Below the pieces are notes generated by a model. The model was not told the DNA's origin. It was given only the letters and a program-made list of their open reading frames with translations, and did no database searches. The translations under genes were made by a program, and so were the position numbers. 64,000 nt of DNA from Candidatus Omnitrophota bacterium (GTDB lineage Bacteria; Omnitrophota; Gorgyraeia; B26-G9): assembly GCA_043806135.1 (NCBI GenBank), contig JAZDHG010000098.1, positions 1,660-65,659 on the forward strand. Reading direction: 5' to 3'. This document shows, piece after piece, positions 30,997-49,343 of this stretch (position 1 is the first letter of the stretch; each line of letters starts with the position of its first letter).

Positions 30997-31048
30997 AAAT
31001 GGATGATTTTGGATATAGGGGAATTATTGATTTAGGAAAGGAGCTGGT

Positions 31049-31861: not shown

Positions 31862-31890
31862 TTGCATTGTCGTGAATCCTATGGTATACT
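31862..31890 (+). promoter_or_regulatory. sigma70-like promoter (TTGCAT-17-TGgTATACT) within a diverged copy of the repeated promoter cassette, upstream of giant gene 2
   Basis: TTGCAT at 31862-31867, 17-nt spacer, TATACT at 31885-31890. The surrounding caatatgttatgagcttgca...aatcctatggtatacttt matches the repeats at 40367-40416 and 41857-41906. Confidence 0.5.
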
Positions 31891-32040
31891 TTCACGTGTT
31901 TTTAAAACGCTTTATAAAGTAATTTAATTTTGAACAAAGAGATAAGTTAAGTATGTAAAATTTTTTAAGATTTTATTTAAAGTATTATTTTGAAGAATGT
32001 AATAACTTTCGTTTAAGCGTAAGGCAAATTAGGTGAGCAC

Positions 32041-32400
32041 ATGAAAAATATCATGCATTTTCTTAGTTGGAGGTTGATGTTCTTAACGACCGTACTTCTA
32101 TTTTTAATGCATTTTTTTGTCTTTATGTCGTGTAGTAAGTTAGATGAAAAAGTGATTGCCTGTGACCAAGGTAATAAAATGCGATTTGTTATCTATAATA
32201 CACTTTCAACTAAAGTTATGATAGGTTATGAGGATTTTAGGCAATTATTTTATCAACCCCTGCGCAAAGGTTCAACAGCAGTAATGAATGCTGAGTTATT
32301 AGGTTCAATGTTTTATTCTTCATCAGTGCCTGTAATTACGAGACGACTCAGGATCAAGGATCCCAGGGGTCACTATATAATGATAGGTAGTGCTATTTAG
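32041..32400 (+). CDS. small hypothetical protein with N-terminal hydrophobic/signal-like segment, immediately upstream of giant gene 2
   Basis: ORF with AGGTGA RBS. Hydrophobic N-terminus ending in FMSCSK (possible lipobox). 8-nt gap to the next ORF suggests co-transcription. Confidence 0.4.
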   Translation: MKNIMHFLSWRLMFLTTVLLFLMHFFVFMSCSKLDEKVIACDQGNKMRFVIYNTLSTKVMIGYEDFRQLFYQPLRKGSTAVMNAELLGSMFYSSSVPVITRRLRIKDPRGHYIMIGSAI

Positions 32401-32408
32401 TTGGAAAA

Positions 32409-35400
32409 TTGCTTATGAAAAGCTTGACTTTAAAAAAACAAAAGGCAGTATATTATCGCGCAAATTCCTTAATTATTGCTTTTGCCTTTGTTTGTACATC
32501 GATAATCCCTCCTGGGTATGCACAGAGCATAACGACTTTGAATCTTCCAAAACCGGGAGTAATGATTCCCCAAAGCCCTGCATTTGTGCCAGTTTTGCTT
32601 AAAGGTATGACGATTTATCCGGATAATCCATTACGGTTTGACTTCATTGTTGATAATGGAAATACTAATTTTATACCTGATGAAATCAAAGAAGAGTCTA
32701 ATCGGCTAGTAAAATATTTTCTTGCCGCCATGACTATTCCGCAGAATGATTTGTGGGTCAACCTGTCTCCCTATGAAGCAAATAAGATTATTCCAACTGA
32801 ACTTGGGAAGACTGAATTAGGCAGAGATATGCTGGCGCAGGATTATATTCTTAAGCAGTTGACAGCATCATTACTTTATCCCGAAAAAGAGCCGGGAAAA
32901 GCTTTCTGGGCCAAGATATATATGAAAGCTAAAGATAAGTTCGGCACAGCAGAAATCCCCATCAATACATTTAATAAGGTCTGGATAATCCCTGAAGAAG
33001 CGCTGGTTTATGAAAATGGCAATGCGGTCTATATTGTTAAAAGCCGTCTAAAAGTGATGCTGGAGGAAGATTATCAGGCTTTGCATCAAAACAGAAAAAG
33101 CGTGAAACTTAAAGTAGATCAATCATCGGATTTACAGACTAAAGGTGCAGCATTAATTTCTTCACAAATAGCGCGTGAAATTATTCTTCCGGAAATTGAA
33201 CGTGAAGTTAATGAAGGTAAAAATTTTGCTTCTATCCGGCAAATTTATCAAGCTTTGATTCTTGCCAAGTGGCACAAAGAAACAATCAAAGAAAGTCTTA
33301 TGTCAAAAGTTTATATTGATCAGAAGAAAATAATGGGAGTAGATTTGTCTGACCCAATGGTTAAAGACAAGATTTATGCCCAATATGTCGAAGCGTTTAA
33401 GAAGGGAGTTTTTAATTTTATCAAGGAAGATTATGACCAAGTGAGTCAGAAGGTTATCCCGAGGAAGTATTTCTCTGGCGGTGAAAAGTTTGGCGATATA
33501 CCTTTGAAGCGAACAAAAGACGCCAGACAGCTTAATTCTTCGCCAATAGGCGATTATTATAAATTAGTAGTAAAAATAGATCCACAGATGAAAACTGGAA
33601 ACGATGATCATGAGATAAAGAATTTGGCTGGAGTCAATCCAAGTAGGGGGTCTCCCCAACTTAAAGAAACTAACGCCGACAAACTAGAATTTGACGCTGA
33701 AGGACTTGATATTGCATTTAAAATTTTCGATTCAAAGGCAGATGTCCCTGAACTCCTTAAAAAAATATCAGGGATTCACGGGGTTGAGAGAGTTGATTGG
33801 AAAGACGGAGTCTTAACAATTATCAGTAAAACAGAGGCTGTCAAAGTCCACCCTAAAGATTTGGAAATAAATGAACGCCATCAAATAAAAGATAGATTTT
33901 ATGTTAAACCTATCTCTGCTTGCGGTGAGATGGCTGTAAAAATTTATCACCGTGATTCTCGTGATGAAATAAAACGGCCCAATAAACCGGTTTATGTGCT
34001 TGGCGTTGTGCGTCCTAGCCATGATGCAGGGGCTGCTTTAATTAAAGACGGGGTTCTTGTCGGAGCTATCGAAGAAGAACGTTTGAATTTGGACAAACAT
34101 GCCAATGCGTACTTCCCTAAGGAGGCAACGCGTTATTTATTAGAAGCTAACGGAATTACCTGGGAAGACATCGACCATATAGCGGTTACTTATGATTATA
34201 ATTTTTACCAGGAAACTCCAAGCAGCAAAGAGCCACATTATTATTATCGTCAAAAATACAATCTTCCTTTTAAGAATTCTTATCGACGATACGATATAAA
34301 TAAGTTTCAATCATTTTTAGAAGGTATGGCTGTTGATTATGGCACAGGATATATTCCTCCAGTTACTTTTGTCAAGCATCACAAGGCTCATGCAGCAGCC
34401 GCATATTATTCTAGTGGATTTACAGAACCGACTTTAGTCGTGTCCATTGATGGCCAAGGAGAAGATGAATCCACAACCATTTGGATAGCGAAAGATGGTC
34501 AATTAAAAAGGATCGCACGCACAACTCCTTTCACGCATTCGTTAGGACATTTTTATCATATCATGACAGTTTACTTGGGATATCAAAGACATGATGAAGG
34601 AAAAGTCATGGGGTATGCTCCTTATGGGGCGCCAAGAAATCTCCAAGAAGAGAGGACGGTCAATCAATTAAGAGAAATAATGCGAGAATTGATATGGTTT
34701 AATCGGAAAACCGAGCAAATTGAAATGAATCAAGAGAATTTTGAATTAACAACAATATCTGCTTTTCCTGGAGTTAAATTTTCAGAAAGTTTTTTACAAC
34801 GGTTAGTTAAGATTATCCCGCCTATGCCTGAAAGCAAGTCTGGTCGTGATTTACAACCAGAAGACCGAAAGAGGGCACATTTGGCATTTGCCATGCAAGA
34901 ACGAGTGGAACAAGTTATTGATGATATGGTTTCTTATTATCTTAATGAAAATAAGGAAACAAAGGGAGTAAAATACGTTGTCATGACTGGAGGCCTTGCT
35001 CTTAATATTGCTTCCAATGGGAAACTTATTGAAAAGGGCACCGTTCAAGCAGATAAATTTTTCGTGCCGGCTTATCCGGCTGATGACGGGACAAGTGTCG
35101 GCGCTGCTCTCTCGGTTTCAACTGAAGAGTATGGCTTGGATGTTCAGAATAAGGTTCAAAAAATATCTTTTGGAAAAACATATTCTGATGAAGAAATTCA
35201 AAGGACATTAGAATGTTTTGGCTTAGAAGAGGGCGTTGACTATGAGCGTATTCAGAACGATGAGCAATTAGTTAATGAGGTAACTGATGCGATTGTGCAT
35301 GACAAAACGGTGGCTTGGTTTCAGGGAGGATCAGAATTAGGTCCAAGAGCCTTGGGGAATAGAAGTATTTTGAATAGGTTAACTGATCCGGAAGGGAATC

Positions 35401-38400
35401 TCAAAGTTAATCGAATCAAAAACCGGGAACTTTGGCGACCATCTGCTTTATCTATTCAAGAAGAACGGGCAGCAGAATTTTTGGATGGAGTAAACACATC
35501 TCCTTTTATGACAATATCATTCCCAGTAACAAAGGACAAAAAAGATATAATCAAAGCTGGGGCTCATCCAGGAGATGGAACGACTCGTCCTCAAACAGTT
35601 TCTCGTGAGGCCAATCCTCTTTATTGGGAATTGCTTGGTGAAATGGGAGAACGCACAGGCGTTCCAGGAGTCCTTAATACATCTTTTAATAGGCGAGGAC
35701 CTATTGTTGAGACACCGGAAGATGCCCTCAATACGTATTTTTATGGCGAAGGATTAGATGTGTTAACCATAGGGCATTATATTCTAAGGAATAAGGAAAA
35801 AATCGTTCCAAGTGTGTTGAATGGTGGAGATGAAGTAGATTTGAAAGAATTTTTCAAGTTAGGAAAAAATAAATCCGAACCATTAAACAAAGTGTGGGAT
35901 GAGTTTTGGCTACAAGCCAATAACGTAGCGGCTTCAAGAGCTTCTGCGCATCAGCACTACTTGATAGTTAATGTTGATGATGCTGGTGAGAATCGTGAAA
36001 TCTTAAGAATTCCATTAATTAAAGAAATGTTTCAAGAGGGGCCGCGTGAATTTATGGTTGCAGACCTTGCCGCAAGAATTCAAAAAGGCATAGGGAGTGA
36101 TAAACTGACAACAATAGCTATTGAAACAACAGCACCTCAATTTAGAGAGATAGTTGTTGATTTATTTGAAAAGTTAGCCCCGGAAAATCTTAAAAGAAAT
36201 TGGAATATTGTTAAATTAGGTTTTGGCGAATGCTCGTCTCTTAAAGAGGAGCTACAACAAAGACGAGTTAATTCTACGGAAGCTGTTAAGGACTTAAATA
36301 GGAATATTAAAAAATGGCAAGGAGAACAGCGTATTGATCCTATTTTTATTGCTGTTACGGGACCAGGCGAAAGCGGCAGAACTTCCATTGTGAATGGATT
36401 GCAAGAGAAACATTTTGTGATTAATGCCGATAGATGGAAGCTATCAGAACATCAGATAAATAATTTGCTCAACTATCCATTTTCGCATATGAGATTTAAT
36501 GATTATGTCAATGCGTTAAAAAGATTACAACAGGGTCAAACAGCTATGATCCCGTTACAGAAAACTCTATCAGCAAAATCGCCACAACGAGGGTTTGCTC
36601 TTTTAAATGAAGAAACAAAAGAAAAATATAAGTATATTTTGGTAAAGGAAAACAGTCAGGTTTGGATCCGACATGACGGACAACTATTTGAGGAAGTTAG
36701 ACCTGAGGCGTCTGATATTTTTATTGTCAATACATCTGTTGCATTAAACTATCCGATATTGCGAAATTTATTTGAAGAAGTTTATTTTGTCGCATCCAAT
36801 GAAGAATTGAAAGAACCATCGAAAAAAGGCGAAGATGGCATTATTCCACCCCACAGGCGTGGAGTTGAATTTGCAACAACTATCGTTGAATTAGATGATG
36901 CCCAAACTTTTTGGACTCCGCTTAAGACCCCGCAGCCAATTAAGCAAATAGACTCAATGTGTGTAGCCCTTGCGAATTATTGTCCAGTGGGTTGTTCATT
37001 TTGTTTTATGCGGTCAGTTCAAGATAAAAGAAAAAGAATAGCATTAGGGTCTAAAGCTATAGAAAGAATTCTTTCTTATGCTAAAGAAAATCAAGTTTTT
37101 CGTATTATGTTATCAGGGGGTGAACCTCTTAGCGAGATTGCAACTGTATTAAGGGTAATACGCGAGGCGGAAGTGCCGCATATCACGATTTTTACTAGTG
37201 GCTATTTTGCAGTAAATGCATCTCGGACGGAAGAGGTCCTTGATCAGTTAGTTGCGGCTGTTAGAGAAAGGAAGCAATCGGGAAAGAAGCCTGTACATAT
37301 ACTTTTTGAAGTAAGTGTTGATGAGTTTCATGGCCGGCGTGTACCGCAAAAGAATATTATCAATATTATCAGAGAATTCGAAAAGGATATGGGTGCGAAG
37401 TACTCAGATATGACCCTTGAAGTTAAGGGCATACTAAATGATGGGGATACAATTCCAGAAATAATGCAAACATTAGGGGGAAAGATCCAGGAAGTTCATC
37501 AAAGCGGACCTTTTCCTACTAAACCGATTATTCTCCCATCTGGCTACACATTTAATGTTCGCTATTCTGAAATAAAACTTGTAAAAGACACGATAAATAC
37601 GAAATTATCAAAAAAACGGTTTGATAGGGTCTATCAAAGAAGATTGGAAGATGATATTATCTATATGGGGAGGGGAGAGAAAAGTGGCGCTAGTTTCTCT
37701 GTTAATTATGACGGAGTGGTCTCTGTTAATGACTATTTAGCAAAAGATTTCGTGTTGGGGAATGCAAATAATGATAACTTCAGTGAGGACGTTGACAGGC
37801 GTTTAAGGTTTGACCCTCTTGTTGTTGCATTACGAGAAATTGGATTAAATACTGTTTTAGACATTACTTCTCGTTTGCGACCAAATATACGGAAAAAATC
37901 GATAGAAATGAACAATCAGTTTATTACAATATCCGATATTTTGGAAGACGAAGAATTGAGAGAAAATATCTATAAGGAATTAATTCAATTGATAGAAAAA
38001 AAAGAGAATCCTGCGTTAAAAGGATCAGCTAATAATGTGCAGTTCTTAAATACTGGTGTTGCTGACTTGACTAAAAAGGTATTTATCATTGGTGATGGCC
38101 ATATTGAATTAGGTGGTTCAGTGACCGTAAAAGGCAATAGAAGCCAGATTAGATTCCAAGGAGAAAATCAAGAGAACTTAGTTATTCGGATGGGTAACGG
38201 CTTGGTAATGGAAGATTGCTTTATTTCTTTAAGAAGGAGCCAAGGGGAGGCTCGTGTGGAATGGCAGGGCGATACTTTGATAATAGAGGAAATGGATATT
38301 GGGGAAAATGTCAGAATCACTAAAGGTGGGGAAATCATGAATGTTCCATGGATAGGTGATGATGTAGAGATTGCAGGGTCATTTTTGATTGAGATGGATA

Positions 38401-39938
38401 ATGCGGGCGTTGGCGACCGAACAAAAATTCTAAGTAATAGCGAAGCAAGAATGAGTACTATTGGTTCAGATGTTGTTATTGACCAGCAATCAAAGATATT
38501 TAAATCAATAGTATCTTCAGGAGCTAAAATCATAAATACGAGTTTAGTGGGGGGGCAGGATGAACTCGTTGGTGGATGGAGACAAAAAGATGACGGAGGA
38601 AAAGGGCGCGGTGTGGTTATTGGAAAGGGCGTGGAGTTTCGTAATGGGATTGCACAACATTTAGGTGTTAAAGAAGGCAAAATAAATCCAATAACTGTGG
38701 CTGATGGAGTAAATCTGGATGGAGTTTTTCTGATTTCCGAAAGGAACAAAGGCATACATGCAATCGTTGATTTAGAGCTCGAGGTAGGTCAACGTGTTTA
38801 TATTTTTGATGGTGTTATTGTTGATGAAGTGGTTAAAAAACAAATTCTAGATAAGCTTGATACGTCGGACATTGTTAAAGTAAGTTTTGAAGAGGGGATT
38901 GCCAAAGTAGAAAGTGTTGCTGGATCAGTGGTAACGCCGGAATTATTAAATGTACCCCAGCTAAAAGAGGAATACGCAACTCAAAAGACTCGTGGAATAC
39001 CAAAGGTATACTCAATAGATACCATACAAGAAGCTAAAGATTTAAACGATCTTTTGTTAAAGAGTGATATTTTTATTAGTCGAGCAGGGGAGATCCTGAC
39101 TTCAAGAGGCGAGAGGGATGACATTGCGGTTCGGATTGGTCAGGGAGCATTTGTTTACCCTGGGGTAGAGATTTATGCGAATGAAGGACGAACAGTTAAT
39201 ATAAATGTTTGGGATTTAGGTAATAGGGGTGGAGCTCTAATAATTGCTGATGAACAAGATGTTCAACTTGGCCCCAAGAATCGGCTGGCAGGCCGTATAG
39301 TTGCGGCAGTTATCAGAGATGTAAATGTCGATGCAGAATTTAATAATTTTGGAGGTATTGCGGATACTATTACAGGAAATGCTAAGATTACTATTAGGAA
39401 TCAAGGCATGCTTAAAAATGCTAATCTTTCATCTGATGGAAAAGGCAAAGGTGAGATCGTTTGGGGGTCGTATCAAGGTGAAAACGTTGATATCGAAGTA
39501 ACTGGTGATGTTGTCGTGGGTTTATCATATGGTGGAATAATTCAAGGACAAAGTTTAAGTGATGGGAGAAACTCAATAAAATTAGTTTCAGGATTTAATT
39601 CTGGTTATAGGTCAGTAATTATAGATGAACGTCAAGAACCGGTTGAACAAATTATTTATGATAGTCTTTATAATGCAACGGATTTTATAATGAAGAGTTT
39701 TTCTTCGCATTCTCCTAAGTATGGTGGTATTGATATGACTGATATAAAGTTCAATCGTAGGGGGGCTGGTGTTGATATCCAAATTGATCCGGTGGTGTTG
39801 CAGAGCATGCTCGAACGGGGAATAAATGGATTTACTCCAGTGATTATCAATTTAACACCGATTAATAACATTATGCCTCTTTTAGGACTTGAACCGAAAA
39901 GCAGAGAAAAGGAGTATGAGTTGTCGAGTTTAAATTAA
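32409..39938 (+). CDS. giant multidomain protein (2509 aa): signal peptide; NodU/CmcH-type carbamoyltransferase; degenerate P-loop; radical-SAM core; C-terminal beta-helix-like repeats
   Basis: Likely true start is the ATG at 32415 (MKSLTLKK...). Signal peptide ends ...SIIPPGYAQS. Carbamoyltransferase N domain spans 33985-35110 (VYVLGVVRPSHDAGAALIKDGVLVGAIEEERLNLDKHANAYFPKEA; HHKAHAAAAYYSSGF; VMTGGLALNIASNGKL; FVPAYPADDGTSVGAAL). Carbamoyltransferase C domain spans 35310-35800 (GPRALGNRSIL, SPFMTISFPV, NTSFNRRGPIVETPEDA). IAVTGPGESGRTS lies at 36346-36390. The radical-SAM motif CPVGCSFC lies at 36981-37004, followed by MLSGGEPL. Glycine-rich hexapeptide-like beta-helix repeats span 38080-39560. 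Confidence 0.85.
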   Translation: MLMKSLTLKKQKAVYYRANSLIIAFAFVCTSIIPPGYAQSITTLNLPKPGVMIPQSPAFVPVLLKGMTIYPDNPLRFDFIVDNGNTNFIPDEIKEESNRLVKYFLAAMTIPQNDLWVNLSPYEANKIIPTELGKTELGRDMLAQDYILKQLTASLLYPEKEPGKAFWAKIYMKAKDKFGTAEIPINTFNKVWIIPEEALVYENGNAVYIVKSRLKVMLEEDYQALHQNRKSVKLKVDQSSDLQTKGAALISSQIAREIILPEIEREVNEGKNFASIRQIYQALILAKWHKETIKESLMSKVYIDQKKIMGVDLSDPMVKDKIYAQYVEAFKKGVFNFIKEDYDQVSQKVIPRKYFSGGEKFGDIPLKRTKDARQLNSSPIGDYYKLVVKIDPQMKTGNDDHEIKNLAGVNPSRGSPQLKETNADKLEFDAEGLDIAFKIFDSKADVPELLKKISGIHGVERVDWKDGVLTIISKTEAVKVHPKDLEINERHQIKDRFYVKPISACGEMAVKIYHRDSRDEIKRPNKPVYVLGVVRPSHDAGAALIKDGVLVGAIEEERLNLDKHANAYFPKEATRYLLEANGITWEDIDHIAVTYDYNFYQETPSSKEPHYYYRQKYNLPFKNSYRRYDINKFQSFLEGMAVDYGTGYIPPVTFVKHHKAHAAAAYYSSGFTEPTLVVSIDGQGEDESTTIWIAKDGQLKRIARTTPFTHSLGHFYHIMTVYLGYQRHDEGKVMGYAPYGAPRNLQEERTVNQLREIMRELIWFNRKTEQIEMNQENFELTTISAFPGVKFSESFLQRLVKIIPPMPESKSGRDLQPEDRKRAHLAFAMQERVEQVIDDMVSYYLNENKETKGVKYVVMTGGLALNIASNGKLIEKGTVQADKFFVPAYPADDGTSVGAALSVSTEEYGLDVQNKVQKISFGKTYSDEEIQRTLECFGLEEGVDYERIQNDEQLVNEVTDAIVHDKTVAWFQGGSELGPRALGNRSILNRLTDPEGNLKVNRIKNRELWRPSALSIQEERAAEFLDGVNTSPFMTISFPVTKDKKDIIKAGAHPGDGTTRPQTVSREANPLYWELLGEMGERTGVPGVLNTSFNRRGPIVETPEDALNTYFYGEGLDVLTIGHYILRNKEKIVPSVLNGGDEVDLKEFFKLGKNKSEPLNKVWDEFWLQANNVAASRASAHQHYLIVNVDDAGENREILRIPLIKEMFQEGPREFMVADLAARIQKGIGSDKLTTIAIETTAPQFREIVVDLFEKLAPENLKRNWNIVKLGFGECSSLKEELQQRRVNSTEAVKDLNRNIKKWQGEQRIDPIFIAVTGPGESGRTSIVNGLQEKHFVINADRWKLSEHQINNLLNYPFSHMRFNDYVNALKRLQQGQTAMIPLQKTLSAKSPQRGFALLNEETKEKYKYILVKENSQVWIRHDGQLFEEVRPEASDIFIVNTSVALNYPILRNLFEEVYFVASNEELKEPSKKGEDGIIPPHRRGVEFATTIVELDDAQTFWTPLKTPQPIKQIDSMCVALANYCPVGCSFCFMRSVQDKRKRIALGSKAIERILSYAKENQVFRIMLSGGEPLSEIATVLRVIREAEVPHITIFTSGYFAVNASRTEEVLDQLVAAVRERKQSGKKPVHILFEVSVDEFHGRRVPQKNIINIIREFEKDMGAKYSDMTLEVKGILNDGDTIPEIMQTLGGKIQEVHQSGPFPTKPIILPSGYTFNVRYSEIKLVKDTINTKLSKKRFDRVYQRRLEDDIIYMGRGEKSGASFSVNYDGVVSVNDYLAKDFVLGNANNDNFSEDVDRRLRFDPLVVALREIGLNTVLDITSRLRPNIRKKSIEMNNQFITISDILEDEELRENIYKELIQLIEKKENPALKGSANNVQFLNTGVADLTKKVFIIGDGHIELGGSVTVKGNRSQIRFQGENQENLVIRMGNGLVMEDCFISLRRSQGEARVEWQGDTLIIEEMDIGENVRITKGGEIMNVPWIGDDVEIAGSFLIEMDNAGVGDRTKILSNSEARMSTIGSDVVIDQQSKIFKSIVSSGAKIINTSLVGGQDELVGGWRQKDDGGKGRGVVIGKGVEFRNGIAQHLGVKEGKINPITVADGVNLDGVFLISERNKGIHAIVDLELEVGQRVYIFDGVIVDEVVKKQILDKLDTSDIVKVSFEEGIAKVESVAGSVVTPELLNVPQLKEEYATQKTRGIPKVYSIDTIQEAKDLNDLLLKSDIFISRAGEILTSRGERDDIAVRIGQGAFVYPGVEIYANEGRTVNINVWDLGNRGGALIIADEQDVQLGPKNRLAGRIVAAVIRDVNVDAEFNNFGGIADTITGNAKITIRNQGMLKNANLSSDGKGKGEIVWGSYQGENVDIEVTGDVVVGLSYGGIIQGQSLSDGRNSIKLVSGFNSGYRSVIIDERQEPVEQIIYDSLYNATDFIMKSFSSHSPKYGGIDMTDIKFNRRGAGVDIQIDPVVLQSMLERGINGFTPVIINLTPINNIMPLLGLEPKSREKEYELSSLN

Positions 39939-40269
39939 ACTTGTAGTAGTAGAAATCATTTATTCCTACAGATGACAAAACGATTTACAGCGAAGACACA
40001 GCATCTCAAAACGTAGATATTATTGCTGAATTCAATTATTTGGAATTAAATCGCACTAAATAATCAATTGATTAATCGGTTTAACTCTCTCTCCTTGCTT
40101 TGTAATTAGAGAAGCTAATTTAGTGCTTTGCATTTACTCTAGATGGGTTTACGTGTGTTTGGAGATATTTCAGTTTTTAACAACCATAAACTAGATTCTA
40201 TACTTATTGGCGATAAGCCATCACTACTGTCCCATTATAAGCTATAAGTTTTTCTTAGCATCTGCAACT

Positions 40270-40460
40270 TAAATACTTCTTATTACTTGCGGCATATAGT
40301 TTGCAGCATTCAGCCAGATTTTTTAACTTTTCTTCAAACGCTAATCGTTATACGCTAACATATGTATTCGCAATATGTTATGAGCTTGCAAAGCTTCTAA
40401 TCCTATGGTATACTTTGCTGTAATTTTTACTTACTTTTTAAAGTCCTTTAATTTTAAAAT
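40270..40460. repeat. ~190-bp intergenic direct repeat, copy A (second copy at 41770-41950), containing a strong promoter
   Basis: Near-identical 94-nt core (tat(t/c)(c/a)caatatgttatgagcttgcaaagcttctaatcctatggtatactttgctgtaatttttac(t/a)tacttttttaaag) plus ~100 nt of more diverged upstream similarity (gcagc(a)ttcagcc...aaacgctaatc). Confidence 0.8.
40387..40415 (+). promoter_or_regulatory. sigma70-like promoter TTGCAA-17-TGgTATACT (in repeat copy A) driving the MntA/HepT pair
   Basis: TTGCAA at 40387-40392, 17-nt spacer, TATACT at 40410-40415 preceded by TGG. Confidence 0.55.
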
Positions 40461-40758
40461 GATCACACAGATTTTAGAAAAATGATTACACCGATTAATA
40501 ATAAATCAACGCGGTAACGCGTTAACGCATATTTGCATATAGCTGATAGCTCATGGCAAAAGCAAAAAAAGAGTAAAAAGTTTATGGTCAATGAGAAAAG
40601 CAAAAAAGCTCTAAGCTTTTATAGCTGAGTGCTCCCCTTTTAATCTCCATAACCCTATTAAATTTGCTTTTATTTTTTTCTTTTGCTATACTTATAATTA
40701 AATTAGACACGAAGTTATTTAATGCTGATTGGATATATAATTTTAAAAAGGCAGAAAA

Positions 40759-41160
40759 ATGAGTATATTATTAAAAGAAGACATAATCAGGAAAGCAACG
40801 GATTTCTTTTTAAAAAGGCCGGAAGTTAAATTTGCTTATTTGTTTGGGTCTGTCGCTCTTGGAAAGAGCAATAAATTGAGTGATGTGGATATTGCTGTGT
40901 TTATTGACAATGATTATTTAAAAGAAAATAAATTTACTTATGGATATAAAGCAGAGCTTATAACAGAGCTTATTAAAGTTCTAAGAACAAATAGCGTGGA
41001 TTTAGTTATTTTAAACAGTGTCCCTGTTCTGCTTAAGCATAAGGTTTTGGTAGGAGGTAAATTGCTTGTTTGCCGTGATGATTCAGAAAGAATTAGATTC
41101 CAAGTGAAAAGCCTGAATGAATACAGTGATCTTAAATGTTTGTTTTTAACGCATAATTAG
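40759..41160 (+). CDS. mntA: MntA-type minimal nucleotidyltransferase, antitoxin of a HepT/MntA type VII TA pair
   Basis: GS-x9-11-DxD Pol-beta NTase motif in YLFGSVALGKSNKLSDVDIAVFID. 133 aa. Directly followed (11-nt gap) by a HEPN/DUF86 gene. Confidence 0.8.
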   Translation: MSILLKEDIIRKATDFFLKRPEVKFAYLFGSVALGKSNKLSDVDIAVFIDNDYLKENKFTYGYKAELITELIKVLRTNSVDLVILNSVPVLLKHKVLVGGKLLVCRDDSERIRFQVKSLNEYSDLKCLFLTHN

Positions 41161-41171
41161 AAGAGGCCGCA

Positions 41172-41591
41172 ATGGTTGACGCGCAAATATTGGTCGTAAA
41201 GCTTAAGGAATTAGAAAAATATATCGCTGAATTAGAAAAATTAAAAACAACTTCCCTTGAAACGCTGTCAAAGGATTTAAACAAAATATGGTCACTTGAA
41301 CATGGTTTGCAGTTATCGATTCAAATAATTATTGATATTGGCAATCATATTTTAGCTGATATGAAAGAAAGCAATATAGAAACTTATACTGATGTTATTG
41401 ATCTGTTAGGTGTGAAAAAAGTAATTCCCGTTGATTTCGCGAAACGTATACGCGCAATGGTTGGGCTTAGGAATATTCTTGTTCATGAATATGTAGAAGT
41501 GGATTTAAAACAGCTTTATTCAGTATTGCGGAATAATTTAGATGATTTTAAAGAATTCGTTAAATTAATTAGATGTTTTTTGAAGAAATAA
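41172..41591 (+). CDS. hepT: HepT-type HEPN (DUF86) toxin of the type VII TA pair
   Basis: R-x4-HxY HEPN motif in GLRNILVHEY. 139 aa. Gene order NTase-then-HEPN is typical of MntA/HepT. Confidence 0.8.
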   Translation: MVDAQILVVKLKELEKYIAELEKLKTTSLETLSKDLNKIWSLEHGLQLSIQIIIDIGNHILADMKESNIETYTDVIDLLGVKKVIPVDFAKRIRAMVGLRNILVHEYVEVDLKQLYSVLRNNLDDFKEFVKLIRCFLKK

Positions 41592-41769
41592 TTGTTGCGT
41601 TAAATGTTAATTAAGTTTTTAGCTGTCCTATGAGCCATGAGCTAGAATCTGTCATCTTTTTTCCAACCTCCAAATTACAAACCAAGTTTCTTATTTCCCC
41701 TTGTGACCTTTTGACTTGTGTCTGATGACTTTATTTCTGTTTTTTCCACCATCCCCAAACCAACCACTT

Positions 41770-41950
41770 TTTCATTGCTTGCGACATGCAGCTTGCAGCT
41801 TCAGCCCAAATCGTTCAATTTTTCTCTAAACGCTAATCCCTAGGCTCTAAACGCTGTATTTACAATATGTTATGAGCTTGCAAAGCTTCTAATCCTATGG
41901 TATACTTTGCTGTAATTTTTACATACTTTTTAAAGGCCTTTAATATTAAA
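41770..41950. repeat. ~190-bp intergenic direct repeat, copy B (matches 40270-40460), containing a promoter
   Basis: See copy A. The embedded promoter is TTGCAA (41878-41883), 17-nt spacer, TATACT (41901-41906). Confidence 0.8.
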
Positions 41951-42005
41951 TAATAAAATTATTTTACGAAAACGTGCAAACTCGATAACGTGAAAGGAAT
42001 ATGTC

Positions 42006-45000
42006 ATGAACAATTTACTTTCCAAATCCTGGTTTCGCTTTATTTCCATTATACTTATCCAGTCATTTTTAATATTAGATATTGCCTGGGCAGGAGGCAC
42101 AGAACTTAATCTTAAGAAAAATTCCGATACGCTTTCCGCCCCGGTTGAAATCTCCCAGCAGATGTTTAATACAAGTTTTGGGAAACTTTATGAGATGAAC
42201 GTTCCTAAGGCGGCTAAGAATTTATCTGTTGGAATAGAAGAAAAAAAATCAAAATGGTCATTATCACAAATATGGCAATCTTTTAAGAAAAGTTTAAAAA
42301 ATAATCTGAGTTTGTTGCATCAGGCTTTTTCAATGGACAAAAAATCTGATGATGACAATGATTTTACGTCAGGCCTTAGATCTATCTTAATCCTGGCAAT
42401 GCTAACCCCCGCTCTTATTGCTTTAAGCTCAAGTCTTGGCTGGACAGGAGATAAAAATTTAATAGAAAGTACAAATGGGCTTATTTCTTATATCCCATTT
42501 AAAGAAATAAAAGATAGCACATATGCTTTCTATTACAACCTTTCCATACAGGGGCAAGTGGTTTTGTTTTATACAATTCTGCCGGTAATGCTCGGTCTTG
42601 TTATTGCTGGAGTTAAGGGTGTATTCGATAGTATAAGTAATAGAAATATTAAAAAAGCTGATCGCTCAAAACTACAATCATTTATGATTCCTCTTATACT
42701 CTCTCCCGCACTTATTGCCTTAAGTTCCAGTCTTAGCTGGGCAGGGGAGGGCACATCAATAGATGGCTCAATAATAGGCGGGGTGTTGGGTACATTGGCC
42801 CTTGCTGTAGGTATCGGGGCGGTGAAGTTCAGGAAAAATATACGCCTTGGTTTAAAGAAGTCATCAAATAAAATTACAGATAAAACTGCCAATGTGTTGA
42901 CGCCAATTTTACAGAAAGTTGTGAAGTCAAAATATTTCTGGGCGGGTCTTGTTGGGCTTTCGGTTTTTGTGAATGGGGGGGGTGTTCCAATGAATGTTGC
43001 TGTAATAGCAACTGTGATATCAGTTTCAGCAGCAATTTCGATTTTGTTTACAACTAAAATATCCCGTTCAACTAAAAAATTACTTACTCTATTATTGTCA
43101 GTGGTTATTTTTACTATTATGGGGTGTTCTCTTCATGAAACTAAAGTTACGAGCAGAAGCTTAACCGAATATCAAAATGTTGGTGATAATAAAGATACAT
43201 TTTCAAAAATAAGTAAAGAAAAAATGAGCTTTAAACAATTGGTTGCTATTTTAGAAAACGAAAATGAGCAGGAAGAAAATAGAATTAAAGCAGCTTTAAT
43301 GTTAAGTGACTTTAAACATAAAAAATTAGAGGATATACTCATAAAACAATTATATGCAACTAAAAAAGTTGATATAAACTTTGAATCAGGGCGAGAAATT
43401 GGTTATATCCGTAGTTTTCATTATGATAAACTAGATGCTAATAAATTGCAAGCAACAGCTGCTTGGATATTGGGGGAAAGGAAGAGTGAAAAAGCTGTTG
43501 AGAACCTGATACTTTTATCTGAATCAGGAGATAACTATGATCATTATCCTAAATTGAATAACTATATTTCTGCTTACTGGCCTCAATATACGGATTTGAT
43601 TGATTCCCGCTTAAATCTTCAAATTAATAGTATTATTGCTTTGGGAAAGATAGGCAACAAAAAAGCAGAGAAGTATTTAAAAACAAGGATGCTAAATAAT
43701 AATAATTGGCAAGTAGATTACGCGGTGTTATCTGCGCTATCTGAATTGGGAGATGAGAAAGCAATATTTTATGAGAAAATTTTTCGAAGTGATATTAGTT
43801 TTGTAGATAGAATAAGCAATGTTGCTAAACAAATAATCCGTGAATACCAGGAAAAGGGATTAGAAAGTCGTGTTAGAGAATATCTGATCGAAGTTTTTGT
43901 GGCAAATTCTAAATGGATAAATAATAGCTTGTATTCTAATCTTCGCTATCAAATGACGGCAGGTGTCTTGCTAAAGTTTTTAGGCGGAGATGATGTTGAT
44001 AGAATCTTTGCTGAATTTTCGAATAACATAGGGTCGAGAAGTATTGGTTATGATTTAAAAGTATTCTATGATCGTCTATTATCAAAGCATGATGATTATT
44101 TCGTTGATTCTTTAGATGTAAGACAATTAATTGATAATTTAAGTTTTACAGATCGAGTAGTGCTATTAACTCGATTAGAGAAGTTATTTGCTCTTAATGA
44201 AGAAGTAAAGCGAACAAATCAATGGTTTCTATTACGAAGGAATGAAATGAAGCCTTCAATAAGGGATAGGGTGGGCAGAGAAATCCCAAAACTAAAAGAG
44301 TTTATTATTAAAGAAATTTCTTCTATTGATGGTTTCGAAGAAATTGTAAAAGAAATGTGCTTTCTTAGGGGGCAAGGTGCTCTTTTTAGAGAAATAAAAG
44401 AGAAACTAAAACAATTTGAATATAAAGATGATAATAGTTCAAAGGAAAGATCGAATATCAGCAAGATTATAATAGCAGTTTTAGCTTCTCCCGTTCTTGT
44501 TGCCTTAAACTCAGGTATTGGCTGGGCGGGGGACGGGGGGCAACAGACGGCAGCGGGATTTAGTAGCCTTTTGAATGGGCAAACGGCACTGGGGATTTTG
44601 TTGGCTGCAGCTGCGTTAATAAGTTTAGACTTTGTATTTTATCGTCACTTTTCAACTAAGATTAAACAATGGGTTTCAAATATTAAGAGCAAGCTAAAAG
44701 ATGATAATACTTCAAGTTATAAAGTAATATCCCCCTCTGAACATGGAAAAAGCAGGCTTTCTGAAAGTCGTGATGAGGCTCAGAAGATCATTTCGTTTTT
44801 AGCCCCACAGGATCAACTGCCTGAAAAAGTAAACGCACTACTGGCGTTTGGTAATGAAGATCTCGAGACGCCTATCCGGGCGGCCAAAGTATATTTTGAT
44901 ACAAAGCCTGAGGTTGTTGTTTTTGCCGGTGGTATTGGTCATTCTACACAAAATCTTTGGGAAATAGGCAGCGAATATTTAGGCGTAGATCTGGAAACAT

Positions 45001-47975
45001 TGAAAGGCTTAAGCGAGGCAGAAATTTTTGCCTGGATTTTTAAGGAAGAATTGAAAAAACTTGGCATGCCTGCCGAGGAAATAGGCAAAATAAAAATATT
45101 ATTGGATACAACCTCACGCAATTCTCAGGAAAATGCCAGAAACAGCTTAAAACTGCTTTATAATAACGGATTTCTAGCAGGCCAGATGAGTATTATTCTT
45201 ATGCAAAAGCCATTGCTGCAAATAAGAGCAGGCGCGAACTTAAGAAGAGAAATTAAGACCATGGAAACAGAGCTTGGGGAGAAATTTTCAATACAATGCT
45301 TTAATCATGCACCATATGTGCCGGATATAAGCTTGATGCAAGATGCAGAATTAGAAGAAATCACAAATGATGCCTTGGGTGAGATTGAAAGGCTGAAGAT
45401 GTACCCTGCTCTGCGTTTTAATTTCATTGATACAATTGAAATTCCAGAAAATGTAAACAAAGCGTATTATGAACTTAAAAAAAATCTTTACCCGGACCGA
45501 TCTATTGAATCTGAGGGAAAACTTGTTGCCGGGTTAATTAAGGAACAGGATAGAACAAGGACTGATATAGATAGGCCTATCCAGGTTGAGTCAGGAGAAT
45601 ATAAAGCAGGTTCGTCTTTTATTAACTTTGCGACTGAACGTTATCAGGGATCCTTATATTTGATTGAAGGAAGCGCTAATGCACAGATAAAAGGTGAAGA
45701 GGGAATTATTCAAACCATAGAATTGGGTAAAGGAGATATTATTAATCTGTTTGTTAACTCTGATATTGTTTTTACAGAGGATTCTAAATTTTATATTTTT
45801 AGGCAGACCGATGCTTCTCAAACTTCAGTAGATCATAAAGAAAAACTTGATGGTGAGGTAACCATTGATTCACGCAATGTTATCGAAAAAGATAGGAATA
45901 TAATTGCTGACGTTTACAGAGATGCGCGAGGTGACTTAATAGCTACTGTTCATAGAATTGATATGGCTTCGCCGGCAAAAATGGTGATGACTACGCCGCG
46001 CAGCGCTGCTATTGGTATTGGTGTAAAAACAGCTATTGGAGATGAAGCTGCTCATCGTCATGAATTAGACGGAAAAAGCAAGATAGAGATTGCACTTTGC
46101 CGAATGGGGTCTCTGACTGCCTATGTTGGGAATAAAGAGGGTAAAGATGTTAATGAAGTCGATGTTAAACAGAATGAGCTGTTAATTCTTTATCCAGACA
46201 GTACTCATGGATTTGAATTCAATAACGCTAAAATGGCAATTATTATCCAGGATCCCGGACGCGGGATTGACAAGGTTGATGCTAAACTTGAAAAAACAAC
46301 TGAAATAACGCTTGGTGCAGCGGAAAAACTTAAGACAGAGCCGGAATCGGTAATTACGGAAGCTATTAAACTTCAGGAACAGGATAAACAGGAAGAGGCA
46401 ATGGCTCTTATCCTTAACTCTTTGCTGGACAAGAACCTTAATCCAGCGGATTATGCGTCTTTTTACCAGGTTTTTGATAAAGAAAGCGGCGATTTTATCG
46501 GATATATGCTTGACGGCAAAGTATATATCAGAGGGGTAGGGTATGAATATAAAGAGTTACTTAATGGCGGGTATAATCCTCTTAAACATGTGCTTCGTGC
46601 CATTTCTGATTTATCTTTTGAAGAAATTATTTCGCTGCCATATGCAGGCAGCTCTTTTAACAAGAATGGGAGGTTGATCGGCACGGTTATTAAAGCAGAT
46701 GATTCGAGGGCACAGAACGGGCCGTATTTGTATACAGCCCAGGAAAATCCTTTAAGAGTCAGGAGTTTTCACGCCGCAAAAGGAACAAAAAGCGAAAAGT
46801 ATCTGCTATCGCCGGTCTCTGAACCTAATCCGTTTGGCAACAGGCCGAGACAGGAAGTATGGCATGTGTTAAAGGGAAAAATCAGGTGTGTGTTCTATAC
46901 CAAAGACAATGAGTATATAGGCGAACAGGTCATGTCTAAAGGCGACACTGCTTTGTTTTCAGAAGCTCATCAGGTGTTTTTTGAAGAAGATTCTATAGTC
47001 CTTGAAATAAGGCAAGGCCCGTGCTCTGCTGATGAGTCGGATAGGCAGATTCTGGATGATGTTGATAATGCTGTTTCAGGATATATAGAAAATGCCGCAG
47101 ACCTTTCGTTCACCGCATTCAAAAAGGAAAACAGGTTAGTTGGAGCAGTAGTCAAAGCAAATCATGTGCCTTTTGACAAGCTGCAAAAATTCTCCGCAAT
47201 GCCTGATCCTATCCAATTTAACAGCTTTTACAAGGATAAAGGCATGAGGGGAACAAAACTTTATCACCCTCCTGTACAGGGTGAAAGTCCCTTCAAGGAC
47301 CAGCCGAGACAGGAAGTGTTATTTATCCTCAAAGGTAAGGTAAGGGTTAAATTTTCTACTGTGGAAAATATCGATGTGGCAGAGGAAATATTAGAGGCCG
47401 GGGATGCTGTTTTGTTTACAGAGGGACATGTGGTTGAGTTCCTGGAAGATACGGTTTTTTTAGAAGCTAAACAAGGACCGTATCCGTCTTCAGGCAATAA
47501 AGATGATGATCAGATTGTATTAAATGAAAACATTGCTCCGGAAAATACAAAATTCGGAAAGCTGGGAATTAATTTTGAACATATTACAAAAACAGCACAA
47601 CTTAACCCTGAGCTGCCGCTTTTTGACTTGATTCTTCAAGATAGTAATTCTCTGGATCCAACCCTGAAGGGAAAAGTTGACCAGTTACAACAGATGGCAA
47701 CAGCGTTCTTTATTAAAGGGGAATTTGATAAAGTAATAGAAACTATTCAAGAAATAATCAAGATATATCCAAATAGTTTTGAAGTGATGCGGCTAATAAT
47801 GGACGGAGTGAAAGAACATAAAGCATTAGCTTCACGCGAACCTGAGATGAAGCTTTTTATTGAATCTAAAGGGACTGTTCTTGAACTGACCGGGGATGAA
47901 ATGCCGTTAAAAGATGCTGTAGGAGCCATTGAAGCAGGTATGAGAGCCGGACAGTTTTTGATGCAGGCGATATAA
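42006..47975 (+). CDS. giant membrane-associated protein (1989 aa): conserved leader; reiterated hydrophobic-helix+WAG modules; DUF218 (SanA/ElyC/YdcF-like) domain; two tandem cupin-like domains
   Basis: RBS AAAGGAA upstream of the ATG. Leader MNNLLSKSWFRFISIILIQSFLILDIAWAGG. Internal modules PALIALSSSLGWTGD (42381-42452), PALIALSSSLSWAGEG (42681-42752) and PVLVALNSGIGWAGDGG (44466-44540). Several other TM helices lie in 42540-43130. DUF218-like segment at 44815-45250 (LLAFGNED...VVFAGGIGHST...TTSRNSQENARNSLKLL). Cupin-like repeats at 46680-47030 and 47140-47490, each with PRQEV...LKGK(I/V)R...GD(T/A)(A/V)LF(S/T)E(A/G)H. Confidence 0.85.
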   Translation: MNNLLSKSWFRFISIILIQSFLILDIAWAGGTELNLKKNSDTLSAPVEISQQMFNTSFGKLYEMNVPKAAKNLSVGIEEKKSKWSLSQIWQSFKKSLKNNLSLLHQAFSMDKKSDDDNDFTSGLRSILILAMLTPALIALSSSLGWTGDKNLIESTNGLISYIPFKEIKDSTYAFYYNLSIQGQVVLFYTILPVMLGLVIAGVKGVFDSISNRNIKKADRSKLQSFMIPLILSPALIALSSSLSWAGEGTSIDGSIIGGVLGTLALAVGIGAVKFRKNIRLGLKKSSNKITDKTANVLTPILQKVVKSKYFWAGLVGLSVFVNGGGVPMNVAVIATVISVSAAISILFTTKISRSTKKLLTLLLSVVIFTIMGCSLHETKVTSRSLTEYQNVGDNKDTFSKISKEKMSFKQLVAILENENEQEENRIKAALMLSDFKHKKLEDILIKQLYATKKVDINFESGREIGYIRSFHYDKLDANKLQATAAWILGERKSEKAVENLILLSESGDNYDHYPKLNNYISAYWPQYTDLIDSRLNLQINSIIALGKIGNKKAEKYLKTRMLNNNNWQVDYAVLSALSELGDEKAIFYEKIFRSDISFVDRISNVAKQIIREYQEKGLESRVREYLIEVFVANSKWINNSLYSNLRYQMTAGVLLKFLGGDDVDRIFAEFSNNIGSRSIGYDLKVFYDRLLSKHDDYFVDSLDVRQLIDNLSFTDRVVLLTRLEKLFALNEEVKRTNQWFLLRRNEMKPSIRDRVGREIPKLKEFIIKEISSIDGFEEIVKEMCFLRGQGALFREIKEKLKQFEYKDDNSSKERSNISKIIIAVLASPVLVALNSGIGWAGDGGQQTAAGFSSLLNGQTALGILLAAAALISLDFVFYRHFSTKIKQWVSNIKSKLKDDNTSSYKVISPSEHGKSRLSESRDEAQKIISFLAPQDQLPEKVNALLAFGNEDLETPIRAAKVYFDTKPEVVVFAGGIGHSTQNLWEIGSEYLGVDLETLKGLSEAEIFAWIFKEELKKLGMPAEEIGKIKILLDTTSRNSQENARNSLKLLYNNGFLAGQMSIILMQKPLLQIRAGANLRREIKTMETELGEKFSIQCFNHAPYVPDISLMQDAELEEITNDALGEIERLKMYPALRFNFIDTIEIPENVNKAYYELKKNLYPDRSIESEGKLVAGLIKEQDRTRTDIDRPIQVESGEYKAGSSFINFATERYQGSLYLIEGSANAQIKGEEGIIQTIELGKGDIINLFVNSDIVFTEDSKFYIFRQTDASQTSVDHKEKLDGEVTIDSRNVIEKDRNIIADVYRDARGDLIATVHRIDMASPAKMVMTTPRSAAIGIGVKTAIGDEAAHRHELDGKSKIEIALCRMGSLTAYVGNKEGKDVNEVDVKQNELLILYPDSTHGFEFNNAKMAIIIQDPGRGIDKVDAKLEKTTEITLGAAEKLKTEPESVITEAIKLQEQDKQEEAMALILNSLLDKNLNPADYASFYQVFDKESGDFIGYMLDGKVYIRGVGYEYKELLNGGYNPLKHVLRAISDLSFEEIISLPYAGSSFNKNGRLIGTVIKADDSRAQNGPYLYTAQENPLRVRSFHAAKGTKSEKYLLSPVSEPNPFGNRPRQEVWHVLKGKIRCVFYTKDNEYIGEQVMSKGDTALFSEAHQVFFEEDSIVLEIRQGPCSADESDRQILDDVDNAVSGYIENAADLSFTAFKKENRLVGAVVKANHVPFDKLQKFSAMPDPIQFNSFYKDKGMRGTKLYHPPVQGESPFKDQPRQEVLFILKGKVRVKFSTVENIDVAEEILEAGDAVLFTEGHVVEFLEDTVFLEAKQGPYPSSGNKDDDQIVLNENIAPENTKFGKLGINFEHITKTAQLNPELPLFDLILQDSNSLDPTLKGKVDQLQQMATAFFIKGEFDKVIETIQEIIKIYPNSFEVMRLIMDGVKEHKALASREPEMKLFIESKGTVLELTGDEMPLKDAVGAIEAGMRAGQFLMQAI

Positions 47976-48470
47976 AGACACAGATTGACACAGATAGACA
48001 AAAACCGTGCAGATGAACACTGATAACTACTGAGGGATGAGGGACGCAATAAAAATTATTAGCTATGAACGACTAGTTATGAGTTATTAGTTACGAATTA
48101 TAAGTTATTTGTATTATTTGGGAGATATGTTTACAATGAAAGATGTTATCAGTTGGTGGCTGAAAAAACTATTTTTACTCATTCTCGACAGACATCCATG
48201 TCTGTCTGCGAGGGCAAAACCTGCTTTTACACATCCATGTATCAGCAGTCTTTGAATCCGCAAAAATAGTTATTTCCATCCAAATACTGTCAACACCAAG
48301 TTACAATAATACAAGTTATTTGTGAAAAATAAAAGCAAAGGAAGAGCTGGTCAATAGTCCATAGTCGATGGTTAATGGGAAAAGAAGTTTCCTGTTACCG
48401 GTTGCCGGTTATGCTGCGGAAAAGAATAGAGTCTAAAAGTGAAAAATAGTTGGAAAACACAAGGGAATAA

Positions 48471-49343
48471 ATGGAAAAAAATTTGATTTTAAAGACGATA
48501 TTGATTTTGCTGATGAATAGTTTTTTATTGCTTGATATCGCTTGGGCAGGGGGTGTTAATTTGTCTGTGTCTGAAAATTCGGATACCCTTGCTGCCCCTA
48601 TACAGATAAATAAAACTTCATTTTTCAATACAGCCTATACCATCAATGTAAAACCCCAAATACTTACGAGTGAAAAAGGAGAGATGCCTGCTGAACTTGC
48701 CAAATTGCTTCCCAGAAGGAAGGTGGATAGATGGGTTTGGAATGATGAATTAAATATGTATATAGGTATTTATGCTAAAGACAATACGGAAGAAAAAAAG
48801 AAGAATTTGGAATTGTCCGGCCCAGAAGAACAAACATCTGCTCAACTAATTGAAAAACGCCGTATTCCTATATTTGAATCAAAAAGGGATGTAATTCTTT
48901 GCATAGGATTATTGGCGACGTTTTATGTCGCGGTTATGGTCCCGCTGATAGCGGGGGTTTGGAATCGTGTCTATGACATCTTCCCGAGAATGTTTATGTC
49001 GTATTCCATATGTATGGGTGGGGCTATTGCCATAGCTGCTATAGTTTCTGCGTTAATAATCCCTAATTTACTGCCTTGGCAAAAAATCGGGTTGGCTTTA
49101 AGTGAAATATTTAAATCTTCATCTACAGAGCCAGAACCGATAGTTAGCAACAAAAAAGATCAGTATTTGCTGAATAGTCAGAATTTAGACAGCTTGCCGG
49201 GAAATCTATATCAAGAGCCTGTACAGGCTGGAAAAACACCTGAGCCTATAGCCTTTAGCGAAGCGGTGAAAAGCCTTGATAAGGGGTTGTTAGAGAATAA
49301 CCTTCTTTTATTTAATCTTAAACTTATTGCTGCTTCTTTATAA
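48471..49343 (+). CDS. membrane protein (290 aa) carrying the same conserved N-terminal leader as giant proteins 3 and 1
   Basis: N-terminus ...LILLMNSFLLLDIAWAGGVNLSVSENSDTLAAPIQINKTSFFNTAYTINV aligns with G3 ...LIQSFLILDIAWAGGTELNLKKNSDTLSAPVEISQQMFNTSFGKLYEMNV. Two to three C-terminal TM helices. RBS AAGGGA upstream. Confidence 0.6.
   Translation: MEKNLILKTILILLMNSFLLLDIAWAGGVNLSVSENSDTLAAPIQINKTSFFNTAYTINVKPQILTSEKGEMPAELAKLLPRRKVDRWVWNDELNMYIGIYAKDNTEEKKKNLELSGPEEQTSAQLIEKRRIPIFESKRDVILCIGLLATFYVAVMVPLIAGVWNRVYDIFPRMFMSYSICMGGAIAIAAIVSALIIPNLLPWQKIGLALSEIFKSSSTEPEPIVSNKKDQYLLNSQNLDSLPGNLYQEPVQAGKTPEPIAFSEAVKSLDKGLLENNLLLFNLKLIAASL

Follow-up and report, generated by a model that had tools for sequence, protein, structure and literature searches.

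A repeated promoter-leader module likely heads large secreted-protein genes of a hypervariable island in an Omnitrophota genome

We analysed a 64,000-nucleotide (nt) stretch of contig JAZDHG010000098.1 from a Candidatus Omnitrophota bacterium, termed the window, to which all coordinates refer unless a related locus is named. At issue is a repeated promoter-leader segment of roughly 130-280 bp, termed R, whose three copies in the window are named c31k, c40k and c41k. Omnitrophota are uncultured, and to our knowledge nothing is known experimentally about the expression of their giant and very large genes. All genes of the region lie on the + strand. The giant gene G1 (2894-30283; 9,129 amino acids (aa)) encodes SecA-DEAD/P-loop domains and two M23 peptidase domains, and is directly followed by a small gene with a Pfam PilZ domain (30499-30858). 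Immediately upstream of c31k lies a RAYT-type IS200-like Y1 transposase (31049-31687; Pfam). Behind c31k are a small open reading frame (ORF) with a lipoprotein-like signal (orf119, 32041-32400) and G2 (32409-39938; 2,509 aa), in which carbamoyltransferase and radical-SAM domains stand behind an N-terminal module found throughout Omnitrophota. The copies c40k and c41k enclose a toxin-antitoxin pair, and c41k is followed by G3 (42006-47975; 1,989 aa), which encodes a large secreted protein combining HEAT, DUF218 and cupin domains. Its sequence matches, at 100% identity, V1739_08965, an NCBI protein encoded on a 75.5-kb contig of a Candidatus Omnitrophota metagenome-assembled genome (MAG).

A repeat search of the window detected two families. 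One has two copies (40277-40458 and 41769-41950; 82% identity over 182 nt), the other three copies of 108 nt at 31841, 40365 and 41857. Local alignment of the intergenic regions paired 40275-40481 with 41766-41972, with 172 of 210 columns identical (z ~80 relative to shuffles). Milder penalties pushed this alignment out to 40247 and 41738, and the resulting spans (40247-40481 and 41738-41972) are ~80% identical. The longest identical run shared by c40k and c41k comprises 60 nt (40371-40430). Identity between the two is 93% over a 97-nt core (40362-40458) and 70-74% in the flanks (Fisher p = 2.6e-5). The third copy, c31k (31821-31937), retains only the functional blocks described below and is ~76% identical to each of the other two (z ~20 relative to shuffles). 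The original prediction, which had been made from the sequence of this stretch, named copies at 40270-40460 and 41770-41950 that are nearly identical over a 94-nt core, and a diverged third copy near 31800-31900; pairwise alignment of the three bears this out, with alignment scores well above those of shuffled controls. Moreover, a 1,522-bp Logan unitig from SRR13662870 corresponds to 40401-41922. Both of its ends fall inside the 60-nt identical run flanking the toxin-antitoxin pair, as expected of a genuine two-copy exact repeat in a de Bruijn assembly graph. Finally, the 13-mer CTATGGTATACTT occurs exactly four times in the window, always on the + strand, at 2635, 31879, 40403 and 41895.

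The three window copies share the same succession of blocks on the + strand: an upstream block CAATATGTTATGAGC, a -35 element TTGCAA or TTGCAT, a 17-bp spacer, an extended -10 element TGGTATACT, a conserved G and a leader box of the form CTTTWTAAAG-N3-TTTAAT. In c41k (41738-42005), which spans the promoter and the full 5' untranslated region (UTR) of G3, these are the upstream block at 41863-41877, TTGCAA at 41878-41883, the TG at 41898-41899, TATACT at 41901-41906, the G that is the predicted +1 at 41912, and the leader box with CTTTTTAAAG at 41926-41935 and TTTAAT at 41939-41944; the ATG of G3 follows at 42006. In c40k (40247-40526), the upstream block occupies 40371-40385, TTGCAA 40386-40391, TATACT 40409-40414, the conserved G 40420 and the leader box 40434-40452. 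In c31k, the corresponding elements are found at 31847-31861, 31862-31867 (TTGCAT), 31885-31890 (TATACT), 31896 (the G), 31910-31919 (CTTTATAAAG) and 31923-31928 (TTTAAT). The promoter geometry that had been proposed, TTGCAA-17-TATACT with an upstream TG, is therefore present at 40386-40414 and 41878-41906, as is TTGCAT-17-TATACT at 31862-31890.

We extended the census of R copies to related loci, which were found through homologues of G3 and PilZ or, in the case of L124, through a search of the JGI metagenomes with the promoter-plus-leader pattern. L122 (GCA_043805415.1) carries a giant gene of 9,199 aa, PilZ, an AbiEi/AbiEii pair and a G3-like gene. L124 (JGI Ga0180007) has PilZ, 271 nt of intergenic DNA and a G3-like gene. 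In L127 (Logan SRR33089659), a giant gene and PilZ are followed by geneA (973 aa), a RAYT, geneB (1,064 aa) and a G3-like gene, and L125 consists of a giant gene, PilZ and a geneB-like gene. In all four loci, TGGTATACT with TTGCA 17 bp upstream heads each large gene. L127 contains three R copies, each ahead of a gene encoding 970-1,170 aa, and in L125 the promoter is present while the leader has diverged. The 5' UTR in c41k aligns with that of its L124 orthologue up to the start codon. Together, the window and the four related loci hold nine R copies, all of them in the orientation of the downstream gene and at a fixed distance from it. An nhmmer profile built from these nine copies recovers exactly the R copies (E = 1e-19 to 1e-27; 3e-27 for c41k, 1e-26 for c40k and 3e-25 for c31k) and nothing else in the window. 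The promoter-plus-leader pattern has a single further match in the JGI metagenomes, the orthologous G3 promoter of L124, and no match in viral contigs. The closest homologue of G2 (L123) belongs to a more distant organism and stands without an R-like promoter.

Across the nine copies, the -35 sequence TTGCA and the extended -10 element TGGTATACT, a TGn followed by a TATAAT-like hexamer, are invariant; TATACT matches TATAAT at five of six positions. The spacer always measures 17 bp, and its sequence varies freely between orthologues. Conserved hexamers and spacing combined with a free spacer sequence are the footprint of a promoter under purifying selection. Six nt after TATACT, a G is kept in seven of nine copies, and between it and the leader box lies a T-rich stretch of 12-13 nt. 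The leader box, CTTTWTAAAG-N3-TTTAA(T), is found 18-19 nt after TATACT in seven of nine copies (~+14 to +33) and forms a 10-bp DNA palindrome. The upstream block (~-55 to -37) has a CAA-N4-TTA core that is kept in most of the copies. Besides TTGCA and TGGTATACT, the columns without variation in the nine-sequence alignment fall in a T-run and in portions of the leader box. Since the same module and spacing recur in four other loci, the similarity points to a selected promoter with its 5' leader and not to chance resemblance of AT-rich DNA. Thus the proposal that the repeat carries a promoter gains support from the -35 element, the 17-bp spacing, the TGn-extended -10 and the leader box, all of which are kept across paralogues and orthologous loci. 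The upstream block is a candidate UP element or a candidate site for an activator or architectural protein; its CAA-N4-TTA core presumably resembles the core of an integration host factor (IHF) site, a likeness which we take as a lead only.

Partial R-like promoters (TTGCAAAG.., then TCCTATGGTATACTTTAAAA) were also seen in other Omnitrophota MAGs, in L067 (5921-5997) ahead of a large signal-peptide protein and in L044 (356-476) and L077 (6082-6149) ahead of an HD-domain protein. Their sequences hint at a strong-promoter consensus typical of the phylum.

The original prediction had also placed the region in front of G1 in the repeat set, on account of its -10 region. A promoter-like site is indeed found there on the + strand (2618-2647), with TTGATA-17-(TGg)TATACT at 2618-2646, and it shares a 13-15-nt extended -10 context with R. 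The wider claim did not hold, as local alignment of the G1 upstream region with R gave no similarity beyond this context (z < 4), the nhmmer profile of R had no match at the site at E <= 10, and the -10 itself is generic. A scan of genome contigs with TTG-N12-TYCTATGGTATACTT, a loose pattern that shows only that the -10 context is generic, found more than 120 unrelated genomes of many phyla among the matches listed, mostly Firmicutes. In other phyla, the 15-mer stands unchanged before tRNA and RNase-P-like genes, and the same extended -10 occurs ahead of other genes in five other Omnitrophota MAGs. This distribution fits a strong promoter of the putative housekeeping type. Judged by these comparisons, the G1 site is a separate predicted promoter of the same class, outside the repeat family and no copy of R.

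Comparison of the five informative loci shows two conserved anchors, a left one (PilZ) and a right one (the G3-like gene), and the content between them differs in every case. There is nothing in L124, AbiEi/AbiEii in L122, a geneB-like gene in L125, geneA, a PilZ fragment, a REP (repetitive extragenic palindromic) hairpin, a RAYT and geneB in L127, and RAYT-orf119-G2-MntA/HepT in the window. These differences support a turnover of cassettes. In two loci, the insertions are bracketed by duplicated local sequence. The AbiE pair of L122 is flanked by a 33-nt direct repeat (L122 positions 7679-7711 and 9573-9605) and also by 63 nt duplicated from the 3' end of PilZ (7115-7177 and 9617-9679), and in L127 a PilZ fragment (~13840-13900) and a second REP hairpin lie behind geneA. 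The two R copies around MntA/HepT are the parallel in the window. Moreover, the order RAYT-then-R is common to the window and L127, and the two RAYTs are 72% identical in aa sequence, yet the genes behind R are unrelated (G2 versus geneB).

The copies themselves carry further traces of exchange. The 17-bp spacer, variable among orthologues, is identical in c40k and c41k, and at the edges of the core, identity between these two copies drops from 93-100% to ~70%. A 20-nt segment consisting of the upstream block plus TTGCA is exact in the three window copies and differs among the three copies of L127. Together these sequence features argue for a recent duplication of c40k/c41k or for their homogenisation by gene conversion over ~97 bp. 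Every cassette head carries the same ~100-250 bp, so that the copies probably serve as homology for recombination. The variable gene content of the five loci and the homogenised c40k/c41k tract thus agree with the earlier suggestion that the copies mark cassette boundaries and are recombination substrates. Possible paths are unequal crossing-over, single-crossover integration of circular DNA bearing an R copy, and block insertion.

Mosaicism extends to the N-terminal signal regions of the large proteins: over its first 165 aa, L127 geneA is a better match to window G3 than is the G3-like protein of L127. As a separate observation, one N-terminal signal module (..SFLILDIAWAGG..SDTLSAP.EI.) recurs in G1, G3 and the 290-aa protein G4 (window 2903-3000, 42006-42180 and 48471-48620), as well as in large genes of L127 (10795 and 18337) and L122 (10001 and 13618). 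The best matches of this module cross orthology lines, which suggests a shuffling of 5' ends.

A toxin-antitoxin pair had been predicted between the two repeats, and all of its expected features are there. An MntA-type nucleotidyltransferase antitoxin (40759-41160; 133 aa; Pfam Polbeta 9e-20, NTP_transf_2 6e-10) is followed after an 11-nt gap by a HepT-type (HEPN) toxin (41172-41591; 139 aa; Pfam HepT-like 7e-29). The translation of MntA contains the GSx10DxD motif (GSVALGKSNKLSDVD) and that of HepT the Rx4HxY motif (RNILVHEY). It is doubtful, however, that c40k drives this pair, as had been assumed, because its UTR is cut at ~40526, a hairpin element follows, and a separate promoter-like site lies beyond it. 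The UTR remnant of c40k runs to AACGCGGTAACGCGTTAAC (40508-40526), where homology to G3-type 5' UTRs stops. Its tail matches the UTRs of L124 (z = 5.7) and of the L127 copy L127_R1 (z = 3.7). The orthologues would have their Shine-Dalgarno sequence and start codon ~15 nt past the end of this homology, and c40k has neither a ribosome-binding site nor a G3-type gene behind the remnant. Between c40k and MntA lies a conserved 72-nt element (40584-40655, + strand) with an imperfect 11-bp hairpin, preceded by an A-run and followed by a T-run. This terminator-like element, whose T-run is stronger on the - strand, shares 96-97% identity with the sequence that immediately follows PilZ in four further contigs (L128-L131), even though the neighbouring PilZ genes are only ~80% identical. 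The promoter-like site, read from the sequence at 40664-40698 (+ strand), consists of TTGCTT (40664-40669), a 17-bp spacer and TGc-TATACT (40684-40692). It is overlapped by a perfect TATAAT (40693-40698) ~60 nt before MntA, where TTTGCTATACT is recorded. MntA/HepT are thus probably served by a promoter of their own. By the same sequence criteria, c40k looks like a stranded cassette head, which may still fire.

In L128-L131, the full post-PilZ element measures ~97 nt (10376-10472), lies directly behind PilZ, is noncoding and is far better conserved than the adjacent genes; for the copy ahead of MntA, Rfam gave no match. A second, partial copy was found at 48343-48384, between G3 and G4 (90-93% identity over 42 nt). 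The contigs L128, L129, L130 and L131 come from different assemblies and all end 170-245 nt after PilZ. No R copy is present in the sequence that they retain, and repeated or variable sequence behind PilZ is probably what breaks the assemblies there.

Taken together, we consider it likely that R is a paralogous promoter-leader module heading each large secreted-protein gene of a hypervariable island that lies behind a giant gene and PilZ in one Omnitrophota clade. In this arrangement, RNA polymerase with a housekeeping sigma factor would start transcription at the conserved G, and the leader box would act as an operator or as an AU-rich translation/stability element. These two roles appear to be the likeliest, and we make no choice between them. 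The copy c41k would be the working promoter of G3, c31k would serve orf119 and G2, and c40k would be stranded, with the MntA/HepT cassette following it. Between related genomes, the island would have gained and lost cassettes. The earlier interpretation, which combined a promoter, a recombination substrate and a cassette insertion, would then be largely right.

Several points weigh against this reading. Promoter activity and start position are read from consensus and conservation only, and the -35 element agrees with TTGACA at just four of six positions (TTGCAA) or three of six (TTGCAT). Nor is the leader box universal, since L127_R2 and L125 lack it or carry only a degenerate form. G4 (48471) has the same N-terminal signal as G1 and G3 and no R copy. 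Finally, the contrast between core and flanks in c40k/c41k could reflect strong selection on the core, and it could also be produced by single-crossover integration of circular DNA with its own R copy.

A more far-reaching version, which we regard as tentative and rather doubtful, is that R, in some copies together with the N-terminal signal region, is the recombination handle of a cassette system. Such a system would exchange, gain and lose toxin-antitoxin stabilisers as well as large genes for secreted, effector-like products at a hot spot behind the giant gene and PilZ, and its stranded heads would fire as non-coding transcripts. If true, an uncultured and possibly predatory phylum would possess a counterpart of the integron that serves very large genes and works by homologous recombination.

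It is unlikely that the conserved part is an RNA element, either a cis-regulatory leader or riboswitch or, in c40k, a small RNA of ~200-230 nt ending at the hairpin at 40607-40640, with the promoter being incidental. In favour of an RNA element, conservation of the leader box falls downstream of the predicted start, there is no coding gene between c40k and the hairpin with its T-run, and 40420-40540 folds somewhat better than shuffled sequences (z = -2.3). This segment of c40k is the exception, however, since the other single leaders gave z = -0.7 to +1.5, mostly at or above 0, and RNAalifold found zero consensus pairs in eight leaders. There was also no Rfam match, neither in the whole window at the gathering threshold nor in 39939-42010 at E <= 1, and the strongest conservation lies in the -35 and -10 blocks, which are not transcribed. 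A known structured RNA family such as a riboswitch, leader or small RNA was therefore rejected. As the leaders share no secondary structure, the leader box seems to be conserved as sequence.

A neutral, recent tandem duplication of a ~1.5-kb unit made up of R and the toxin-antitoxin segment, by replication slippage or unequal crossing-over, has little to recommend it. The R-X-R layout with its 1,492-bp period does resemble a duplication junction, and the decay of the flanks to ~70% identity would be in line with it. However, the module is kept block by block in four other loci, with unchanged spacing to the start codon downstream, and c31k keeps only the functional blocks. Moreover, the c40k UTR tail resembles L124 and L127_R1 where c41k differs, so that c40k and c41k are not simple copies of each other.

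We give equally little weight to R as a dispersed element of a mobile or recombinational kind, such as a miniature inverted-repeat transposable element (MITE), the end of an insertion sequence (IS), a REP or bacterial interspersed mosaic element (BIME) or an integron attC-like site, with promoter-like hexamers by chance: a RAYT-type transposase and REP hairpins do adjoin c31k and L127_R2, toxin-antitoxin cassettes between repeats recall chromosomal integron arrays, and several contigs end just past PilZ, but the copies are not flanked by terminal inverted repeats or target-site duplications, their common orientation and fixed distance from the downstream gene do not fit, and viral contigs and the JGI metagenomes add only the orthologous G3 promoter mentioned above. 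The specific candidates were rejected in turn. For a MITE or IS-derived repeat, it was the missing terminal inverted repeats and the co-orientation of all copies with the downstream gene that decided. REP-like hairpins bracket the RAYT (30960-30998 and 31692-31718; AACCCAATTCTGAC...GTCAGAATTGGGTT), and the same hairpins occur in L127 (10385-10429 and 13998-14036), where the RAYT orthologue (14077-14745) sits inside the same variable island; their sequence is unlike R. An attC site is not suggested either, as R is placed 5' of genes, lacks a long inverted repeat and shows no folding advantage over shuffled sequence. Finally, Pfam searches that covered the window ORFs from 150 aa upwards and the smaller ORFs of the island revealed no integrase, as an integron cassette array would have, and the IS200-like Y1 transposase of the RAYT type was the only recombinase-like gene.

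Relative to the Omnitrophota preprints searched, R is new as an instance; the phenomenon is familiar, in that paralogous promoters stay alike and provide homology for recombination. Extended -10 promoters of the sigma-70 type with upstream elements drive bacterial genes of high expression, among them those for rRNA and tRNA. R resembles them in its TTGxxx -35 element, 17-bp spacer and TG one base upstream of a TATAAT-like hexamer, and also in having a conserved block just upstream of the -35 element, where UP elements or activator/IHF-type sites lie. In contrast to such promoters, its upstream block departs from the A/T-tract UP consensus, and a palindromic leader box is added past the start. 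The predicted start and the candidate operator or leader box make this conserved module a concrete target for metatranscriptome mapping and reporter assays.

Multigene families with shared 5' regions under concerted evolution or cassette exchange include the polymorphic-toxin Rhs/CDI loci with their orphan modules and the surface-protein families that have expression-site promoters in common. As in these families, the R island combines a common promoter, leader and, in part, N-terminal signal with differing gene bodies and an orphan head, its gene content varies between strains or species, and its copies show signs of homogenisation. Unlike them, it shows no evidence of programmed switching and no silent cassette archive, its variable parts are whole genes with enzyme-like domains instead of toxin tips, and its recombination is deduced from comparison between genomes. 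Chromosomal integron arrays, for example the Vibrio superintegrons, carry toxin-antitoxin cassettes. The R island has in common with them a variable gene array with toxin-antitoxin pairs between repeats (MntA/HepT in the window, AbiEi/AbiEii in L122), whereas R is a 5' promoter and not a 3' attC hairpin, and its cassettes are huge genes with promoters of their own. The MntA/HepT pair itself appears to be of type VII, judged by domains, antitoxin-first order, 11-nt gap and motifs; this likeness concerns the cargo between the repeats and not R.

Passages of two preprints describe small pilZ genes that come after the giant genes of Omnitrophota (West-Roberts et al. 2023, bioRxiv 10.1101/2023.11.21.568195; 10.64898/2026.06.07.730766). 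As described in these passages, the published loci resemble the window in that a SecA-DEAD-class giant gene bearing M23 peptidase domains and a small pilZ gene stand in direct succession. The word 'promoter' is absent from the main text of both preprints, and a repeated promoter-leader module with a variable island behind pilZ is not among their matching passages. In our comparison, the stretch behind the giant gene and PilZ is a hot spot in which large genes and toxin-antitoxin pairs come and go, which matters for the reading of fragmented assemblies.

Some further features of the window were recorded. The first ~350-400 aa of G2 (window 32415-33600) are common to more than 2,300 Omnitrophota proteins, at 50-68% identity. 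These proteins measure 1,400-4,300 aa and carry unrelated enzyme domains (NUDIX, kinases, methyltransferases, radical SAM, glycolytic enzymes), so that this N-terminus looks like a phylum-wide carrier module. A second PilZ-domain protein, of 648 aa, is encoded at 58067-60013, within the glycoside-hydrolase/transporter part of the window. Tandem repeats with a period of 7 make up intergenic DNA behind giant or large genes, both in the window (30289-30485 and 48054-48108) and in L122 (6719-6803 and 7298-7385); their units keep changing (GAGTAGC, AAGAACG, TTATGAA, CTATCAG and others) and are rich in stop codons. Finally, window positions 30329-30498 are 87% identical to positions 9833-10000 of L128, above the ~80% identity of the adjacent PilZ coding sequence.

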